Counted from the stretch's first letter, positions 30,790 through 39,137 are shown. The stretch: DNA of 64,000 nucleotides from an uncultured Caulobacterales bacterium (GCA_937927825.1 CALFWV010000042.1:9980-73979); one strand, 5' to 3'. Notes: a model not told the origin generated them from the sequence alone. Numbers and translations: made by a program.

Positions 30790-31476
30790 CTAACCGGGGC
30801 CGGAGCTGTTCGGCGCGCTGGTCCCGATAACATCATCCGCAACGAAGGCATTATCTCTGCGTTCCTGACCAAATGTCCCCATGGGACCATGACCGGGGAC
30901 GAAGCGCATCTCATTCCCGAGCGGCCAGAGTTTTTCGGTAATTGAATTTAATAATTGTTGGTGATTACCCTTTGGGAAATCCGTACGTCCAATGGATCCC
31001 CGAAATAATACATCGCCAACAAAAGCGATTTTCATATCTGCATTGTAAATCACGACGTGGCCGGGCGTATGGCCGGGCGTATGCAGCACATTGAATTTTA
31101 CACCGGACAGTTCGAGCACATCGCCGTCTACAAGATAACGGTCGGGCACGACGGCGCGGCCCATACCGGGGTGCCCATATTGCGCCCATTGGTCGGAGAT
31201 ACCATCCATCCAAAACTGGTCATCTTTATGTGGGCCGATGACTGAAACGCCGAGTGTTTCGCGCAATTCATCCGCGCCGCCCGCATGATCCAAATGTCCA
31301 TGGGTCAGCCACATTTCTTTCAATGTGATGCCCATGTTATCCAGTGTCTCTTTCAAGCGGACCGCTTCCCCGCCCGGGTCTATGAGCACGCCCTCTTTCG
31401 TGTCGACATCATATAGCAAAGAGCAATTTTGCTGAAATGGGGTAACAGGGAGAAGTTTAAGATCGAGGCGGGCCAT
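30790..31476 (-). CDS. MBL-fold metallo-hydrolase (YcbL/GloC, glyoxalase II-like)
   Basis: PVTPFQQNCSL, WLTHGHLDHAGG, HTPGHTPGH, GDVLFRGSIGRTDFP, PGHGP. Start MARLD at 31476. Confidence 0.93.
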   Translation of the reverse strand: MARLDLKLLPVTPFQQNCSLLYDVDTKEGVLIDPGGEAVRLKETLDNMGITLKEMWLTHGHLDHAGGADELRETLGVSVIGPHKDDQFWMDGISDQWAQYGHPGMGRAVVPDRYLVDGDVLELSGVKFNVLHTPGHTPGHVVIYNADMKIAFVGDVLFRGSIGRTDFPKGNHQQLLNSITEKLWPLGNEMRFVPGHGPMGTFGQERRDNAFVADDVIGTSAPNSSGPG

Positions 31477-31550
31477 AAGGTTTATCTGTGTTGGTTCCGG
31501 CGGCGGGTCAAGACCCGGTCTTCCGGGTCCGGATAAGATCATCCGCGTAA

Positions 31551-31594
31551 CTGTGACACATGTTTCATATCGGTGTCACGTTCCTGTCACATCG
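31551..31594 (+). promoter_or_regulatory. Pho box array (four 11-bp-phased repeats)
   Basis: CTGTGAC-ACAT / GTTTCAT-ATCG / GTGTCAC-GTTC / CTGTCAC-ATCG; exact 11-nt period matching the PhoB CTGTCA(T/C) direct repeat. Confidence 0.72.
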
Positions 31595-31624
31595 AAGCTG
31601 CAACACAGAGCTCATATACTCTGA

Positions 31625-31729
31625 TTGCCAAAGTCCTTCTCTTTCCCGGAAGCTGACTTTGTAAACTAGGCCGCTCCGCAAAGACCCCCTTTCCCCTTGG
31701 TTTTGTCTCGCGGAGCGGCCCTTTTTTTT
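31625..31729 (+). ncRNA. Candidate small RNA 1 (two hairpins with CU-rich loops, intrinsic terminator)
   Basis: CAAAGTC/GACTTTG stem with loop TCTTTCCCG; 11-bp GGCCGCTCCGC/GCGGAGCGGCC stem with CCCCCTTTCCCCTT loop, followed by CTTTTTTTT; no credible ORF. The 5' end is approximate. Confidence 0.68.
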
Positions 31730-31809
31730 GGCTCTGCTCAAATATGAACCCTTTGTCATAAACTGGAAAAGGTCCCGACAGGTTAAGGATGTCATTTGTA
31801 ATTCATACG

Positions 31810-31911
31810 GTCCGTTGGCTGCGGTGATACCTCCCCCAACCCAGCACTGACAGCGTAAAGGCGGCCCAGATTGAAAAGACCCGCATTGGCATATCCGATG
31901 TGGGTCTTTTT
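31810..31911 (+). ncRNA. Candidate small RNA 2 (CCUCCCCC loop hairpin plus terminator)
   Basis: GCTGCGGTG/CACTG-A-CAGC stem with loop ATACCTCCCCCAACCCAG, then terminator AAAAGACCCGCATTGG-CATAT-CCGATGTGGGTCTTTTT. The 5' end is approximate. Confidence 0.55.
31874..31911. terminator. Bidirectional intrinsic terminator (candidate sRNA2 and ABC1 kinase gene)
   Basis: 12-bp stem flanked by A4 and T5. Confidence 0.82.
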
Positions 31912-31943
31912 GCATTCAGTCGACCCCAACATAAAATATTATT

Positions 31944-33272
31944 TTACATAGCCAGATGATCCCGGATTAACTGAGCAACATTAATGCGTGCCCGTAATCG
32001 CGTCGCGAGCATATACATCCCGCCCAATTTCCGTTGAAGGAACACAGTTTCCGCCGGAGGCACGTGCCAAAGCTCCCGATTTCCGGCGATTTCCATGCCC
32101 CTATCGCGCAAATCCGTCGCTATTGAATTACTGCCAAAATCAAAATCCTCATCCCGGCTCAGCGGTGCGACTGACATTGCAATCATATCGCTGATAATGT
32201 CGCGCGGTTCGCCGGATATGTCGGCGGGGATGAGGCCCATTTTTGCAATATGGGTCATGATGTTTTCGACATTTCCGGATAGGCAGGTTTCCATCAATTG
32301 GCGATATTCGGCCGATAACCCTTCGCTAATTTCGCGCGTGGCCCCAAAGTCCAACAGTACGATTTGTTCCCTTTCGTCATTATATCGGTAATTTGCGAAA
32401 TTCGGGTCGGTCTGCATGAGCTTAAACTCAAATAATTCACGCAAGGTCAGAGACATGAGCAGATAAACGATGCGGTCTCTCACCTCTTGCGGCGCGTCCA
32501 TCATCGCCTCAATCGGGCGGCTTTCGATATAGGACATGGCCAGCACTTTGTCGGTCGATAGCGCCTCATAATAGTGCGGCACTTGAAAATCATCCTCAGC
32601 CGACAATAAAGCTCCGAAGCGGCAGAGGTAATCCGCCTCGCGAATATAATCCGCTTCCTGGTGAAGCTGGCTGCGTCCTTCTTCAATAATGGGTTTGACG
32701 TTCATTGACGCGGGCACAAGGCCCGATATCTTCAGAAGGGCGGCGACATTTTTGACGTCGCTATCGATGCTCTCACGCACGCCAGGATATTGGACTTTGA
32801 TTGCGACATCGGCGCCATCGGGCAAAATGGCGCGATGAACCTGCCCGATTGACGCGGCTGCAATCGGACGCGTTTGGAAATGTTCAAACCGGGTAAGCCA
32901 ATCCTCGCCCCATTCGGACTTAAGGACTTTGGCCAATTGGGTCGCCGGCATATGTTGCGCGCTGGCCCTTAAGCGCGCGAGAATATCTGCGAGCTCTTTA
33001 GGCAGAAAATCTCCGCTATCCATGGAAATCATCTGACCGATTTTCATCGCCGCGCCGCGCATATTGGAAAGCTGCTGCGTGAGCTTCATGGCATTAGCCG
33101 GCGTCAGGAATAGGTCAGACGCTTTCGGGCGCTTCCCGCTGGCGAATTGCTTTGCGCCGTTCAGAGCCACATTGCCGGCAATACCCGCCGCCATACCGCC
33201 CAATCCCGCAAGCCGGGAGAGCCGCCGGGACGGAACCGCACGCCCGTCATCCTTGCCTGTATGATCACTCAT
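31944..33272 (-). CDS. ABC1/AarF/UbiB family atypical kinase (COQ8/ADCK3-like)
   Basis: MRGAAMKIGQMIS (KxGQ), PIAAASIGQVHRA, VAIKVQYPGV, MQTDPNFANY, LLDFGATRE. Confidence 0.93.
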   Translation of the reverse strand: MSDHTGKDDGRAVPSRRLSRLAGLGGMAAGIAGNVALNGAKQFASGKRPKASDLFLTPANAMKLTQQLSNMRGAAMKIGQMISMDSGDFLPKELADILARLRASAQHMPATQLAKVLKSEWGEDWLTRFEHFQTRPIAAASIGQVHRAILPDGADVAIKVQYPGVRESIDSDVKNVAALLKISGLVPASMNVKPIIEEGRSQLHQEADYIREADYLCRFGALLSAEDDFQVPHYYEALSTDKVLAMSYIESRPIEAMMDAPQEVRDRIVYLLMSLTLRELFEFKLMQTDPNFANYRYNDEREQIVLLDFGATREISEGLSAEYRQLMETCLSGNVENIMTHIAKMGLIPADISGEPRDIISDMIAMSVAPLSRDEDFDFGSNSIATDLRDRGMEIAGNRELWHVPPAETVFLQRKLGGMYMLATRLRARINVAQLIRDHLAM

Positions 33273-33362
33273 GGATCTAACCTCTATGCCGCGCCCAGCA
33301 TAAACTTCCGCGAGCGCTCTTTGTCTACGTCTTAAGCTCCCTCGCAGCTTTATGTGGTGGGA

Positions 33363-34772
33363 TTAAGATGAGTTTTGGGTGATTTCCAGCTCTGTCTGTT
33401 GCGCCTGAAACAAGTCTGCATGTTTCGCAACAAAGGCTTCAAGCGTATCAAAAAATTTGAGAATATCATCGGCCTCATTCGTCGCGTTAATCGTGACGAG
33501 ACGAATAAATGTGTCGAGCCCGAAGGATCCATAGCCCACTAATAACTCGGATTTTTCATAGAGTAACGTGCAGAGTTTTTCAGCCGGAACGTCCTTATAA
33601 TTAAAACAAATTGAGACGGAGTCATCGACGCTATAGTCCGTATAATCAGGATGATTTCGAATATAATCGCGAGCGACATCAGCCAGTGCAAATTGTTTAT
33701 CAACGATAGCCTCAAGTCCCTTTGTCCCGACACTTTTCCAAAGCACCCAGAGTTTCAGCGCGTCATTCCTGCGGCCACATTGCAGCGACATTTTCCCGAG
33801 ATTAAAGTCATCATGATCGGTTTGGTAAAGATAGCTCGCATCATTTGAGAAGGAGTCATAAAGATGCTGTTTATCTTTTACGACAATCAAAGAACAACCC
33901 AGCGGCGTTCCCAGCATTTTATGCGCATTGAGCGTGAACGAATCCACCTCCTCTACGCCGTCAATTAAATGCTTATATTTTTCGCTCAGAATAACGGAGC
34001 CGCAATAGGCCCCGTCAACATGGAGCCAGATATTAAACGCTTTTGCGACGACGCTGGCGGCGCGGATATCATCAAACGCCCCCAAAACAGTTGTTCCCGC
34101 CGTGCAGTTAATCAACACCGGGTGAAGGCCATTTGCAATATCGGTCTCGATTGTTTCGCGTAAAATTGCCGTATCCATACGGCCCTTCGCATCAGTCGCA
34201 ATTTTCCGAACATTGTCTCGGCCAATTCCGGCGAAAGCAGCATTTTTGGGTGTGCTGTAATGGCTTTCGGCAGACGTGTAGACCGTCATGCGGTGATGAA
34301 CGCCTACATGGCGCGTTGTCTCATTATAGGCATCGCGCGCCATGAGCATACCCATGAAATTTGTCATTGATCCGCCGGGGGCCAAAGTGCCATCGGACGC
34401 AGCGTCCCAGCCAATCCTGTCACAAATTTCGCGCAAAACGGCTTTCTCAACACCGATTTGCGGACCTGCGGCCTTATAGGTGTACATGCTGTTATTGAGG
34501 ATAACCGACAACAAATCCCCGAGGATAGCTTTGTCCTGACGCCCGCCAAAAAGTTGATTGAAAAACGCGTTGGTCGCGGTGCGCGGGGTCGTAAAAATGA
34601 GATCTTTGAGAGACGCCTCCAGCTCCGCCGCGGTAATACCGTCCTCTTGAAGTTTGAGGTCAAGACGGTCGTAAAGCTTGGCCGACGGAATATATTCGGC
34701 GACGGGCTGTTCCGCTTCGTCCGCCAATAAGTCCCCCACCAAACGATCAAAAATCTCTAAAGCTTTTTCCAT
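33363..34772 (-). CDS. Group II PLP-dependent decarboxylase (GAD/CSAD/ADC-like)
   Basis: FFNQLFGG, PGGSMTNFMG, SHYSTPKNAA, TAGTTVLGAFD, WLHVDGAYCG, NAHKMLG (PLP lysine), SLQCGRRNDALKLW. Start MEKALE at 34772 (ORF track 34829). Confidence 0.9.
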   Translation of the reverse strand: MEKALEIFDRLVGDLLADEAEQPVAEYIPSAKLYDRLDLKLQEDGITAAELEASLKDLIFTTPRTATNAFFNQLFGGRQDKAILGDLLSVILNNSMYTYKAAGPQIGVEKAVLREICDRIGWDAASDGTLAPGGSMTNFMGMLMARDAYNETTRHVGVHHRMTVYTSAESHYSTPKNAAFAGIGRDNVRKIATDAKGRMDTAILRETIETDIANGLHPVLINCTAGTTVLGAFDDIRAASVVAKAFNIWLHVDGAYCGSVILSEKYKHLIDGVEEVDSFTLNAHKMLGTPLGCSLIVVKDKQHLYDSFSNDASYLYQTDHDDFNLGKMSLQCGRRNDALKLWVLWKSVGTKGLEAIVDKQFALADVARDYIRNHPDYTDYSVDDSVSICFNYKDVPAEKLCTLLYEKSELLVGYGSFGLDTFIRLVTINATNEADDILKFFDTLEAFVAKHADLFQAQQTELEITQNSS

Positions 34773-34797
34773 ATTTGGCGGCGTCCTAACTATCCGG

Positions 34798-35130
34798 TTA
34801 ATCGTCTTGTTTTGAGAGTATCGTTCCATGTCGAGCTTTTGAATAAACGACAGCTCCCTTTAAGAGCAATGCAGCGGCACTCAAAAGACAAAACATCGCA
34901 AGCAGAGTTCCGAAGGCCAGATATAACACCCTCAATAGGGTACGATTTACCGGTTCCGAAAATTTCAAATTCAACCAGAGAAGACATAGTCCGCCGCCCG
35001 CAAAATAAATAAAGCACACGATTTTAGTGAACTGCGGATTTTGACTCGCAACGCTCAAAGGAGATAGATGCCCGAGGGGTCTAAAAACCGACCAGCCGTC
35101 AGTTGTATTCACAAAGACGGGCGGCCACAT
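34798..35130 (-). CDS. Possible small two-TM membrane protein (about 110 aa)
   Basis: ATG 5 nt after the hisS stop; hydrophobic IVCFIYFAGGGLCLLWLNL and VLYLAFGTLLAMFCLLSAAALLLKGAVVY; fills the hisS-decarboxylase gap. Confidence 0.45.
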   Translation of the reverse strand: MWPPVFVNTTDGWSVFRPLGHLSPLSVASQNPQFTKIVCFIYFAGGGLCLLWLNLKFSEPVNRTLLRVLYLAFGTLLAMFCLLSAAALLLKGAVVYSKARHGTILSKQDD

Positions 35131-35135
35131 CCGGC

Positions 35136-36620
35136 TTAACCCGCCAGCATCGCCTTGACCGCCGCAACCCATTTTCCGCGCGAGACGGTTTCTTGGGCGG
35201 GGCGGGAGGACTTCCATTCTTCATTGGATTCAATCGCGGCAGCGGCTTTTGCGCCCTCATATAAATCTTTTAACGTGACCTGACCCGCGTCCATTTCATC
35301 GCTGCCCATGAGGACAGCAACTTGCGCATTGCGGCGGTCGGCATATTTCATCTGTTTCGTGACATTGCCGGACCCGACAAAGACTTCGGCGCGAATACCG
35401 GCTTTGTGAAGTTCGCCCGCAAGTTTGAAATACTCGCCCATCAGGCCTTTATCAAAAGCGCAAATAATCACGGGAGGTTTCACAGAGGATTCCAGCGCGT
35501 CCATCCGCTCCAGCGCGGTGAGGAAACGCGACACGCCAAAGCTAAACCCTGTCGCAGGGACGGCTTGGCCGCGAAAGCGCGAGACCAAATCATCATAGCG
35601 GCCACCGCCGCCAACAGAGCCAATCCGCACGGGACGGCCTTTGCGGTCTTTGATTTCAGTGAGAAGTTCCGCTTCAAAAACAGGGCCGGTATAATAACCA
35701 AGGCCGCGCACAATTGATGTGTCATAGCTGACGCGGTCATTGCCAAATCCAACGGCATTTAAAATCGTGTCAATCTGAATGAGTTCTTTTACCCCGTCCA
35801 GACCGCGTTCCGATGTGCCCATTAACCCTTCAAGGGTGCGGATTGTATCGGCGCGGTTTTCAGTCGAGGCCGTGGTGAAACCGAGGACCGCTTTAATGCC
35901 CGCCGCGCCGAGTTTTGCGCCGTCCGTATAATCGCCGCTCTCGTCTTCGCGTCCCTCGCCGAGCAGGGCTTCCACACCTGCCGCGCCGAGACGATCAAGC
36001 TTATCAATCGCGCGCAAAACTTGCAGGCGTTGTTCTGCCCCCGCTTCCGTATTGGGCACGCCGGAGGATTCCAAAATTCCGTCCAGCAATTTGCGATTAT
36101 TTACGCGGATAGTATATTGCCCGTCGCGCAGGCCCGCCGCACGCATGACCTCTGCCGCCAGCATAATTATTTCCGCATCTGCGGCCGGACCGGCTGCGCC
36201 AACACTATCTGCGTCGCATTGCGTAAATTCGCGGAAACGGCCCGGTCCCGGTTTTTCATTGCGGTACACACTGCCCGCTTGATACCGGCGGTAAGGTTTG
36301 GCGAGAGCATCATAATTTTCAGCAACAAAACGCGCGAGCGGCGCAGTCAAATCATAGCGCAGGCTCATCCATTGTTCGTCATCATCCTGCAGGGCAAAGA
36401 CACCCGTATTTGGCCGATCATCATCGGGCAGGAATTTCCCCAATACATCGGCAAATTCAAAGGCCGGCGTCTGGAGCGGCTCGAATCCGTGCATGTCATA
36501 AACGGAAAACGCCGCCTCAATGAGACGCGCTTCGGCGCGCAGGACATTAGAGCTGCGATCTTCAAATCCGCGCGGACGGCGGGCTTTAGGACGAAAGGGC
36601 TTGTTTTTCTTTTTAGACAT
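35136..36620 (-). CDS. hisS: Histidine--tRNA ligase
   Basis: ARRPRGFED, LRYDLTAPLARF, YRNEKPGPGRFREFTQCDAD, RGLGYYTGPVFE, GGGGRYDDL, GFSFGVSR, KQMKYADRR. Confidence 0.98.
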   Translation of the reverse strand: MSKKKNKPFRPKARRPRGFEDRSSNVLRAEARLIEAAFSVYDMHGFEPLQTPAFEFADVLGKFLPDDDRPNTGVFALQDDDEQWMSLRYDLTAPLARFVAENYDALAKPYRRYQAGSVYRNEKPGPGRFREFTQCDADSVGAAGPAADAEIIMLAAEVMRAAGLRDGQYTIRVNNRKLLDGILESSGVPNTEAGAEQRLQVLRAIDKLDRLGAAGVEALLGEGREDESGDYTDGAKLGAAGIKAVLGFTTASTENRADTIRTLEGLMGTSERGLDGVKELIQIDTILNAVGFGNDRVSYDTSIVRGLGYYTGPVFEAELLTEIKDRKGRPVRIGSVGGGGRYDDLVSRFRGQAVPATGFSFGVSRFLTALERMDALESSVKPPVIICAFDKGLMGEYFKLAGELHKAGIRAEVFVGSGNVTKQMKYADRRNAQVAVLMGSDEMDAGQVTLKDLYEGAKAAAAIESNEEWKSSRPAQETVSRGKWVAAVKAMLAG

Positions 36621-36688
36621 GTCCGCCTCCTAATGCGCTAGGCCGCAAGAGGAAAGACCCCATTGACGCTCACCACTGCCGGGATTGA

Positions 36689-37282
36689 TTATTTCCGGTA
36701 AGCCCGTGTGATAATCACCGTGTCTTTTAGGATTTGCCCCCGGGTGACGGCTTCATCTGAGTTCGCAGCTGTTTCCATGGCCTGAATAGCGCGCGCGACG
36801 TCGAGACCTTTGGTGACGCGGGCAAAAGTCGCGTAGCCCTGCCCGTCCGGATTTCGCGACCCGCCCGTATCCAGAAAATCATTATTCCCAATATTGATAA
36901 AGAAATAAGCCGCGCTCCCCGTACCGGGCTCAAGCCGTGCAATCGCGACCGCGCCGTCCCGATTGCTGATACCTGTGTCCGTTGTCAGCTCATGCGCGAT
37001 GGGTCCGCCAACCATGTCCTGATCCAAACGTCCGCCTTGGATAAGGCTCATCCCCATTTCGCGCGGGTCATTATCCGCCCGCACAACGCGGTAAAACCCC
37101 TGCCCGTCATAAAGACCGCCATCGACATAGCGCAGGAAGTCCCCCGCGCTGATGGGAGCCTTGTCCGGATAGACGGTAATTTCAATCGGGCCCGCTGTCG
37201 TCTCGAGCACAATTACGGGCAGCTCCGTCTGCGGCGTGCAAGCCATACCCAATAGCCCCAAACTTAAAATCCAGTGTTTCAT
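36689..37282 (-). CDS. Cyclophilin-type peptidyl-prolyl cis-trans isomerase, lipoprotein
   Basis: LLGMAC lipobox; YPDKAPISAGDFLRYV..GLYDG..FYRVV, IQGG, FFINIGNNDFLD, GYATFARV. Start MKHW at 37282. Confidence 0.9.
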   Translation of the reverse strand: MKHWILSLGLLGMACTPQTELPVIVLETTAGPIEITVYPDKAPISAGDFLRYVDGGLYDGQGFYRVVRADNDPREMGMSLIQGGRLDQDMVGGPIAHELTTDTGISNRDGAVAIARLEPGTGSAAYFFINIGNNDFLDTGGSRNPDGQGYATFARVTKGLDVARAIQAMETAANSDEAVTRGQILKDTVIITRAYRK

Positions 37283-37370
37283 GAATACTAGATGAACCTT
37301 GGGGCGCCTCGTGTCGAGATATTCAGACACCATTCAGACGGCCAAACTTAGTGAGGATGTAAGGTCGCTG

Positions 37371-37500
37371 GCGTACACATCTGGGGGGATGAACGCAGGC
37401 GGCCTGGGCAGGTTGAGTGGCACTGGTTGCCCCCTAAGCCGTTCCCTGCCCGCCTATGCCTGTTTCGTAGAAATTTACGTTTGAGCCCCCTGCTGTAGGC
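37371..37500. ncRNA. Candidate rod-shaped structured RNA between pgi and the cyclophilin gene
   Basis: Nested complementary segments GCGTACA/TGTAGGC, GGGGG/CCCCC, ATGAACGCAGGC/GCCTGTTTCGT, GGC/GCC, GGGCAGG/CCTGCCC, with a 17-nt AT-rich one-sided bubble. Confidence 0.4.
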
Positions 37501-37577
37501 AGTCTTTACTCCAATAAACCTCCGGCTTGGCCGCGAACGACGTTTTGAGCGGGTAACTCATAAAATTGGGCAGACCT

Positions 37578-39137
37578 TTACTTCACCAGTCCCATCAACG
37601 CCGTTGTAGACGGATCATGGTCGCCCGCTGCTCCCGCGGCCATCTCCAACAGAATAGTCTCAGCCAGCACTTTACCAAGCTCCACGCCCCATTGGTCAAA
37701 ACTATTCACGTTCCAAATGATGCCTTGGACAAAGGTTTTATGCTCATAAAGCGCAATTAAGTGTCCGAGCGCATTTGGGGATAATTCATCCAAAGTAATC
37801 GTCGTCGATGGACGATTGCCCGGGAAGGTCTTTTGCGGGGCAAGCGCGTCAATATCAGCGCGGGCCGCATTTTCCTTGCGCACAACAGCCTCGTCTTTTC
37901 CGAGCATCAAAGCTTCGGATTGCGCGAAACAATTGGCGAGCAGGGCCGCGTGATGTGCGGGGCGATTTTCGTGATCTGTTAACACAGCGACAAAATCAAC
38001 AGGCGCGCCGCCATAGCGGCCTTCGCTTGGCCCTTGATGCAGCCATTGAAAAAAGGCGTGCTGGCCATTTGTACCTTCATCGCCCCAAATGACCGGACAG
38101 GTTAGTGTTGTGGCATCGCCATCACGTGTTGCGGATTTACCGTTACTCTCCATTTCCAACTGTTGCAGGAAGGCTGAGAATTTCCGCAAACGACGCGCAT
38201 AAGGAATGACGGCCTGAGAGCCATAACCCAAACCGTTTCGATTCCAAATGCCAACAAGCGCCATCATGACGGGCAGATTTTCCTGCAAAGGTTGGTCCCG
38301 GAAATGCAAATCCATGGCTTTCGCGCCGTCCAGAAAATCACTGAACACATCGGGACCGTAGGCGATTTGCAAAGACAGGCCGACAGCGGACCAAACGGAA
38401 TAACGTCCGCCAACCCAATCCCAAAAATCAAAGATATTTTCCGGCGCGATCCCAAAATCAACAGCACGGTCGCGGTTGGCTGTCACGGCAATCATATTCG
38501 TGCCGCCATATTGGCCGAGCCAGTCCCGAACGCTTTCACCGTTCATTTTGGTTTCTTGTGTGCCGAAAGATTTCGACACAACCACAGCTAATGTTTCCGC
38601 CGGGTTCAGCCCTTTGATGGCGTCATTCACCGACGCACCATCTACGTTTTCAGCAAATCGGAGCGTCAAGCTTTGTTCAGCCCGAGCCTCAAACGCATCC
38701 GCGACAAGACGCGGGCCGAGGTCCGACCCGCCAATGCCGATATGGACAATATTTTTGAATTTGCCGTCAGCGCGAAGGGCATTGGCGTAATCGGCCATAC
38801 GCGTGCGCATCTCTGCGACTTCTTTTTGATTTTCGGCTGTCCCGCCGACGCCGCGCAAAGCCATATGCAGGACTGCGCGATCTTCGGATGTATTGACCCG
38901 TTCGCCGGAAAAGAGTTTCGCGCGCCATTCCTCCAAATCACATTTCGCAGCGAGGTCCAGCAGCGCGTCCAGGGCTTTGCCGTCCAGCGCCTGTTTCGAA
39001 AAATCCGCTCGCAAGGGACCTTCACGCATAACGAAACGCGAGAGGCGATTTGGCTCAGCATCAAAGAGAGACGCGATAGAAATATCGCGGTCCGCTTCCG
39101 ATGCGAGGGTGGAGAGAAAATTATGCCGGTTCGTCAT
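37578..39137 (-). CDS. pgi: Glucose-6-phosphate isomerase
   Basis: VHIGIGGSDLGP, VVSKSFGTQET, FWDWVGGRYSVWSAVG, QQLEMESNGK, GTNGQHAFFQWLHQG, NSFDQWGVELGK. Start MTNRH at 39137. Confidence 0.98.
   Translation of the reverse strand: MTNRHNFLSTLASEADRDISIASLFDAEPNRLSRFVMREGPLRADFSKQALDGKALDALLDLAAKCDLEEWRAKLFSGERVNTSEDRAVLHMALRGVGGTAENQKEVAEMRTRMADYANALRADGKFKNIVHIGIGGSDLGPRLVADAFEARAEQSLTLRFAENVDGASVNDAIKGLNPAETLAVVVSKSFGTQETKMNGESVRDWLGQYGGTNMIAVTANRDRAVDFGIAPENIFDFWDWVGGRYSVWSAVGLSLQIAYGPDVFSDFLDGAKAMDLHFRDQPLQENLPVMMALVGIWNRNGLGYGSQAVIPYARRLRKFSAFLQQLEMESNGKSATRDGDATTLTCPVIWGDEGTNGQHAFFQWLHQGPSEGRYGGAPVDFVAVLTDHENRPAHHAALLANCFAQSEALMLGKDEAVVRKENAARADIDALAPQKTFPGNRPSTTITLDELSPNALGHLIALYEHKTFVQGIIWNVNSFDQWGVELGKVLAETILLEMAAGAAGDHDPSTTALMGLVK

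Follow-up and report, generated by a model that had tools for sequence, protein, structure and literature searches.

A cysteine sulfinate decarboxylase-type gene, probably horizontally acquired and without a detected dioxygenase partner, in an uncultured Caulobacterales bacterium

What does a decarboxylase of the cysteine sulfinate decarboxylase (CSAD) type do in a bacterium whose genome shows no source of its substrate? Enzymes of this type, which complete taurine synthesis in animals and bacteria and are normally supplied by a cysteine dioxygenase, have been known in bacteria since 2013; PMC8153620 credits both the selectivity motif and a recombinant CSAD from Synechococcus PCC 7335 to Agnello et al. 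2013. Bacterial synthesis of taurine and hypotaurine is considered sporadic (PMC10356861). The gene studied here lies in a stretch of 64,000 nucleotides (the window) from an uncultured marine Caulobacterales bacterium. A first-pass annotation had read it as a CSAD-like PLP decarboxylase serving either taurine synthesis or a PanD-independent beta-alanine route, and had proposed looking for panD and cdo in the genome and analysing phylogeny and codon usage. The host genome (G000) comprises 2.55 Mb in 220 contigs and is 92% complete, so that absences from it are no proof.

The decarboxylase gene is the sole PF00282 gene of this genome. Its longest open reading frame, 33363..34829 on the minus strand, has 488 codons, and the ATG at 34772 is M20 of that frame. 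Sequence comparison supports this ATG, which gives 469 residues, as a better start than 34829, because homologues begin at the same MEKALEIF and the TAGGA upstream is conserved (it is kept in the syntenic loci L020, L022 and L023). The features of the gene are the following:

33363..34772, minus strand: coding sequence of a group II PLP-dependent decarboxylase of CSAD type, 469 aa (PF00282, 1.5e-69)
33918..33920, minus strand: codon of the PLP-binding lysine K285 (NAHK), invariant in 120/120 close homologues
34482..34550, minus strand: codons of the selectivity motif F75-x19-S95-x-Y97 (469-aa numbering)
34784..34788, minus strand: TAGGA, a Shine-Dalgarno-like (ribosome-binding-like) site 11 nt 5' of the ATG at 34772, read from the sequence

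A search for known RNAs or riboswitches near the gene gave no Rfam match in 31000-37600 at E<=1. A single TAA met in some relatives was rejected as a sign of pseudogenisation; it is their natural stop, the query being longer C-terminally.

The PF00282 match reaches 235 bits against a 27-bit cut-off and covers profile positions 7-375 of 375. Among solved structures the ranking is headed by mouse CSAD (6zek, 3.3e-74), human CSAD (2jis, 5e-73) and GADL1 (6enz, 1.7e-71); the GAD65/67 structures score below these (1e-62 to 1e-65), and solved DABA, aromatic and histidine decarboxylases reach 1e-47 or worse. The string NQLF-GGRQDKAILGDLLSVILNN-S-M-Y, with the key residues F75, S95 and Y97, is found in the protein, and in a HMMER alignment to solved structures these three residues share columns with F/S/Y of mouse and human CSAD. 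The F-x19-S-x-Y pattern noticed earlier is thus in register with the animal motif. The background that had accompanied it was right for CSAD (F-S-Y) and for GAD65 and GAD67, which have S/N/F in the same columns, but it had also ascribed F-S-Y to GADL1, and the mouse protein has Y-S-Y.

The paper on the structure of mouse CSAD (bioRxiv 10.1101/2020.09.25.308866) likewise gives Tyr, not Phe, as the first motif residue of GADL1. According to it, Phe94 of CSAD matters specifically for the binding of cysteine sulfinate and keeps glutamate out. Weak turnover of aspartate by both CSAD and GADL1 is reported as well, so that cysteine sulfinate and aspartate are not told apart by the motif alone. Our list of catalytic residues was taken from the same paper, where a stacking His, a PLP Lys, a loop Tyr and a carboxylate Arg are named for the mouse enzyme. 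Their counterparts H171, K285, Y314 and R424 (the last for the alpha-carboxylate), together with D253, the aspartate at the pyridine nitrogen, are all present in the window protein and near-invariant across 250 aligned relatives, being invariant in 120 close homologues and kept in 129 of 130 distant representatives. The motif itself reads F-S-Y in 91 of the 120 close homologues and F-S-A in the other 29. The animal enzymes (6ZEK, mouse; 2JIS, human) therefore resemble the window protein in their group II PLP type, in the NQLF...S.Y motif and in the PLP Lys, stacking His, Asp, loop Tyr and carboxylate Arg. They differ in length, the window protein (469 aa) being shorter N-terminally than animal CSAD (about 493-520), and the HMMER alignment to CSAD covers just the first ~390 of its 469 residues. 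These comparisons support its assignment to the CSAD type.

The strongest arguments that the orthologous family acts on cysteine sulfinate come from gene adjacency and from a gene fusion. A scan of one genome per prokaryote species, in which flanking open reading frames were clustered, yielded 61 orthologous loci with 57-87% identity. They fall in two phyla: Alphaproteobacteria, with Litorimonas, Algimonas, Hellea, Robiginitomaculum, a Hyphomonas MAG, Maricaulaceae and Kordiimonas, and Bacteroidota, with Chitinophagaceae, Saprospiraceae, Flavobacteriaceae, Crocinitomicaceae, Vicingaceae, Salibacter, Phaeocystidibacter and Aureisphaera. At 23 of the 61 loci, every one from Bacteroidota, a divergent gene for cysteine dioxygenase (CDO) lies 100-200 bp upstream of the decarboxylase; its product of 170-200 aa is a type I enzyme (PF05995 CDO_I, 4e-21 and 1e-19). 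A sodium:solute symporter (SSF) gene follows 4-160 bp downstream at 14 of the 61. The nearest representative in a library clustered at 50%, P0125, joins both domains in 634 aa (CDO_I at 14-162, decarboxylase at 217-578); its decarboxylase part is 58% identical to the 469-aa protein, and the fusion is one open reading frame in two separate assemblies. The CSAD-type assignment made earlier from the motif is hence backed by the genomic context of its orthologues. The bacterial CDO and CSAD route to taurine, as described for Synechococcus sp. PCC 7335 and marine bacteria, uses the same enzyme type and motif, and the marine Bacteroidota orthologues (57-80% identity) are exactly such a CDO and CSAD module, often with the SSF symporter.

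Two further contexts were seen in Bacteroidota. The fusion gene lies on a contig from Bacteroidota at L084:5001-6905, and also in L085. Its 5' end overlaps the 3' end of an OsmC gene, and MsrA and SelO are near, a neighbourhood that indicates an oxidative-stress context. At L041:5079-7849 and 12 similar Flavobacteriaceae loci without CDO, an HTH_3 regulator and a 133-aa protein without Pfam family lie directly upstream, and mscL is convergent just downstream of the decarboxylase; an osmolyte context is possible for these mscL-flanked copies.

Compared with the Bacteroidota module, the one in the window genome is incomplete, as it is in seven other alphaproteobacterial carriers. The first-pass annotation had correctly stated that no CDO gene is adjacent. 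None was found elsewhere in the 92%-complete genome either, whether by PF05995 or by tblastn with two Bacteroidota CDOs, nor was CDO_I above cut-off in the seven further alphaproteobacterial carriers, four of which are cultured strains. No alphaproteobacterial locus has CDO near the decarboxylase. Among the Flavobacteriaceae carriers checked, CDO is absent from two and lies elsewhere in the genome of one. Cysteate synthase was considered as a substrate source in the host, but TIGR03844 has no match in its 92%-complete genome. With neither CDO nor cysteate synthase found, the host genome offers no visible endogenous source of the substrate.

The fate of the product was followed in the same way. 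A catabolic funnel towards Xsc was set aside, no Xsc above cut-off being found in the host genome or in five other carriers, which have acetolactate-synthase-like paralogues only. For the partners seen in relatives (SSF symporter, sulfotransferase, aminotransferase, 133-aa protein, TseH and DUF6695) tblastn found no orthologues in the host genome, the best matches being paralogues of 24-28% identity. Taurine-amide glycolipids have been reported in Henriciella. The decarboxylase gene occurs in 0/120 genomes from the order's other families, and the taurine-amide lipid therefore does not depend on it; we set this link aside, keeping it as a distant option.

The position of the gene in its chromosome also bears on its origin. 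It occupies a variable slot between two anchors, together with a kinase gene:

30790..31542, minus strand: MBL-fold hydrolase, downstream anchor of the slot (PF00753)
31944..33272, minus strand: ABC1/UbiB-type atypical kinase, 91 nt downstream of the decarboxylase and on the same strand (PF03109, 1.2e-60)
35136..36620, minus strand: hisS, upstream anchor of the slot (TIGR00442, 368 bits against a 287-bit cut-off)

The identity of hisS in five congeners is 76-93%. The distance from hisS to the MBL-fold gene, 3.6 kb here, is 1.0-1.2 kb in two congeners (G075, G015) and 4.1 kb, with unrelated genes, in a third (G090). The slot corresponds to window positions 31542-35136, and a counterpart lies at L011:5097-9217. 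In Litorimonas cladophorae the slot is occupied, in place of decarboxylase and ABC1 kinase, by a redoxin, a cytochrome c and two proteins that match no Pfam family. The kinase follows the decarboxylase solely at the window locus, L020 and L077, and the L. cladophorae orthologue of the kinase (67% identity) lies on another contig than the decarboxylase. The two genes share the slot, any link in function between them being conjectural. The MBL-fold protein scores best among NCBIfam models with GloB (92 bits, below cut-off) and reaches 48 bits with the sulfur transferase/dioxygenase Blh model; by these matches it could be a persulfide-dioxygenase-like enzyme. Relatives that lack the decarboxylase also have its gene beside hisS, so that a connection with the decarboxylase is improbable. 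Two further open reading frames on the minus strand are doubtful. The one at 31565-31915 (116 aa), between the kinase and the MBL-fold gene, is probably not a gene, because it has no Pfam or NCBIfam match and its codon-usage score is in the 1st percentile. The other, at 34798-35217 (139 aa), fills the 363-bp spacer between hisS and the decarboxylase and overlaps the end of hisS; it is probably spurious, as its translation is hydrophobic and of low complexity.

The alphaproteobacterial copies stand in at least eight mutually different genomic arrangements, which include hisS-MBL (the window and five MAGs), pepP-ssb, hrcA/grpE and an aminotransferase neighbour. At L015:8517-11345 in L. cladophorae, an islet of thymidine kinase, decarboxylase and a convergent Sulfotransfer_1 gene lies between ylxR/infB and nusA/rimP. 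The gene was found in 11 of 200 other genomes of the family: in 7 of 18 from the same genus, in 4 of 31 from three other genera, and in none from 22 genera. In L. cladophorae, where hisS, decarboxylase and ABC1 kinase are on three separate contigs, hisS is 93% and the decarboxylase 77% identical to its counterpart in the window. The window protein shares 79-80% identity with copies from Chitinophagaceae, whose contigs have a GC content of 35-38%. In a quick maximum-likelihood tree, with SH-aLRT as the measure of support, the alphaproteobacterial copies form a single clade (SH-aLRT 97), nested among CDO-linked Bacteroidota with Chitinophagaceae nearest. Horizontal spread of the gene is thus well supported. 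As a monophyletic Bacteroidota was not rejected by the AU test (p = 0.305), a donor in that phylum is suggested and no more firmly stated.

Horizontal acquisition had first been proposed on the ground that the gene looked AT-richer than its neighbours. The proposal stands, but on the evidence of distribution, slot, contexts and cross-phylum identity and not of composition. The gene is indeed AT-richer, with a GC content of 0.484 against 0.53-0.56 in its neighbours, but mildly so (6.5th percentile of 983 long open reading frames; median 0.531, SD 0.030), and the difference is absent from synonymous sites: GC3 is 0.523 (23rd percentile) and the codon-usage score lies at the 89th percentile. Codon positions one and two carry the AT-richness, which thus reflects the amino-acid make-up of the protein and does not mark a recent import. 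Of the two analyses proposed at the outset, codon usage hence proved ordinary, while the phylogeny, by nesting the alphaproteobacterial clade among Bacteroidota, agrees with transfer.

Between the window copy and eight CDO-less alphaproteobacterial copies, dN/dS is 0.04-0.07 (about 0.05) with a saturated dS of >=1.5. The low ratio indicates a functional gene under purifying selection, and a dS at or beyond 1.5 means that, measured by synonymous change, its arrival was no recent event. Every Bacteroidota copy among the 61 loci has Y as third motif residue, whereas 10 of the 23 alphaproteobacterial ones have A; on the tree the change from Y97 to A is required four times, always within the CDO-less clade. 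This pattern hints that selection on the pocket in that clade may differ from that in the CDO-linked copies. A more distant relative of F-S-A type was also met in marine Flavobacteriales (P0275, of the P0126 cluster, at L086:5001-7367); its operon contains TseH-like (PF25218) and DUF6695 genes but lacks CDO. The F-S-A decarboxylases of this cluster are abundant in ocean metagenomes, being listed in 130 blocks of the collection, and the operon may represent another route or substrate.

From these data we hold, with moderate confidence, that the product of the gene is probably an active decarboxylase of cysteine sulfinate/cysteate, a CSAD-family enzyme (EC 4.1.1.29 type) whose substrate we infer from its relatives, and that the gene is a horizontally acquired orphan. 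In the proposed mechanism a short acidic amino acid would form an external aldimine with the PLP carried by K285, and the pocket of F75, S95 and Y97 would fit a three-carbon sulfinate or sulfonate side chain and exclude glutamate. CO2 would leave, and the intermediate would be protonated by Y314 of the mobile loop, giving hypotaurine from 3-sulfino-L-alanine or taurine from L-cysteate. Horizontal transfer, probably out of Bacteroidota, would have brought the gene into the hisS-MBL slot without that of the dioxygenase. Because the decarboxylase is an orphan in the host genome, its substrate would have to come from outside the cell or by an unrecognised route; these bacteria are found on kelp and red algae, both of high sulfonate content. 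As no Xsc was found in the host or in the five other carriers, the product would more likely be retained as a solute or antioxidant, or incorporated into another molecule, than broken down.

Other readings of the gene were weighed against this one. Hosts without CDO might have adopted another short acidic or polar amino acid as substrate, perhaps a sulfonated one of algal origin that is not cysteate, and CSAD would then denote ancestry only. Eight alphaproteobacterial carriers in which CDO was not found fit such a shift, and strong purifying selection implies that some function is kept; we judge it unlikely but grant it some weight, since the four independent changes from Y97 to A are exclusive to the CDO-less clade and the F-S-A relative of marine Flavobacteriales keeps TseH/DUF6695 thiol-enzyme genes and not CDO. 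The window copy, however, retains the full F-S-Y and every other pocket and catalytic residue, it is 79% identical to CDO-linked Chitinophagaceae copies, and no conserved partner gene points to another substrate. That the gene is a decaying relic of a transferred one, with no present function, is hardly credible. Its patchy distribution suggests frequent loss and its pathway partner is missing, but the reading frame is intact with all catalytic residues kept, dN/dS is about 0.05 (at saturated dS), and codon usage is well adapted.

The beta-alanine route would make the protein a PLP-dependent aspartate 1-decarboxylase like insect ADC and mammalian GADL1, which belong to the same subfamily (GADL1 6ENZ, 1.7e-71). 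CSAD-family enzymes do use aspartate to some degree (bioRxiv 10.1101/2020.09.25.308866; PMC10594873), so that weak activity of this kind would be expected of the window protein by analogy, and homologues carry the JGI label 'sulfinoalanine decarboxylase/aspartate 1-decarboxylase'. A PanD-independent route nevertheless finds no support in the genome itself, which has a normal pyruvoyl panD (166 bits). Among 41 Kordiimonadaceae, panD occurs in 4/5 carriers of the decarboxylase and in 26/36 non-carriers. Both genes are found together in L. cladophorae, A. arctica and Aureisphaera galaxeae, whereas Kordiimonas aquimaris (G153) and a Hellea MAG (G159), which also carry the decarboxylase, showed no panD. 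The two genes thus have no complementary distribution, which leaves a replacement of PanD without support. At the position where GADL1 has Tyr the protein shares the Phe of CSAD, and the window genome data give no sign of the beta-alanine role of GADL1 and insect ADC. PanP, the Vibrio-type PLP aspartate decarboxylase, belongs to the same Pfam family, but the window protein is not a member of that group (TIGR03799, 134.5 bits against a 606.1-bit cut-off), and its orthologues are linked to CDO and not to pantothenate genes. We regard aspartate as the main substrate as improbable, somewhat more so than the shift to another substrate. Far less probable still is that the motif misleads and the enzyme decarboxylates glutamate, diaminobutyrate or aromatic amino acids. 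None of the NCBIfam equivalog models is passed by the protein, and the top match by score is indeed the L-2,4-diaminobutyrate decarboxylase model (NF052646), but at 176.5 bits against a 900-bit cut-off; the model of GadB-type GAD (TIGR01788) gives 19.5 bits where the cut-off is 380, the protein lacks the S-N-F motif of GAD, and solved DABA and aromatic decarboxylases lie at 1e-47 or worse against 3e-74 for CSAD. The search for panD and cdo proposed at the outset therefore found the former in the genome and, at 92% completeness, not the latter.

A wider scenario can be put forward, which we consider speculative and rather doubtful as a whole. Robiginitomaculaceae and Kordiimonadaceae may have taken the decarboxylase half of a Bacteroidota cysteine-to-hypotaurine module and may run it without CDO, either on sulfonated or sulfinated amino acids of their algal hosts or on a new substrate. 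The change from Y97 to A would then represent an ongoing shift in specificity, and the product would serve as a solute, an antioxidant or the head group of a taurine-amide glycolipid.

While the enzyme type is known, the new element is a CDO-less, selectively maintained orphan copy in algal-surface Alphaproteobacteria. The decarboxylase moves between phyla alone and is under strong selection in genomes without visible synthesis of its textbook substrate. A pipeline that annotates 'taurine biosynthesis' on the strength of the decarboxylase alone would therefore over-call the pathway. Several cultured carriers exist, among them Litorimonas cladophorae KCTC 23968, Algimonas arctica KCTC 32513 and Kordiimonas aquimaris JCM 16665. 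In the sea, taurine and hypotaurine are among the main currencies in which organic sulfur is cycled. If cysteate or sulfinate derived from the host alga is used, the gene would be a small piece of the sulfur exchange between alga and epiphyte; if its specificity has shifted, the Y/A position would offer a ready-made natural experiment on the selectivity motif.
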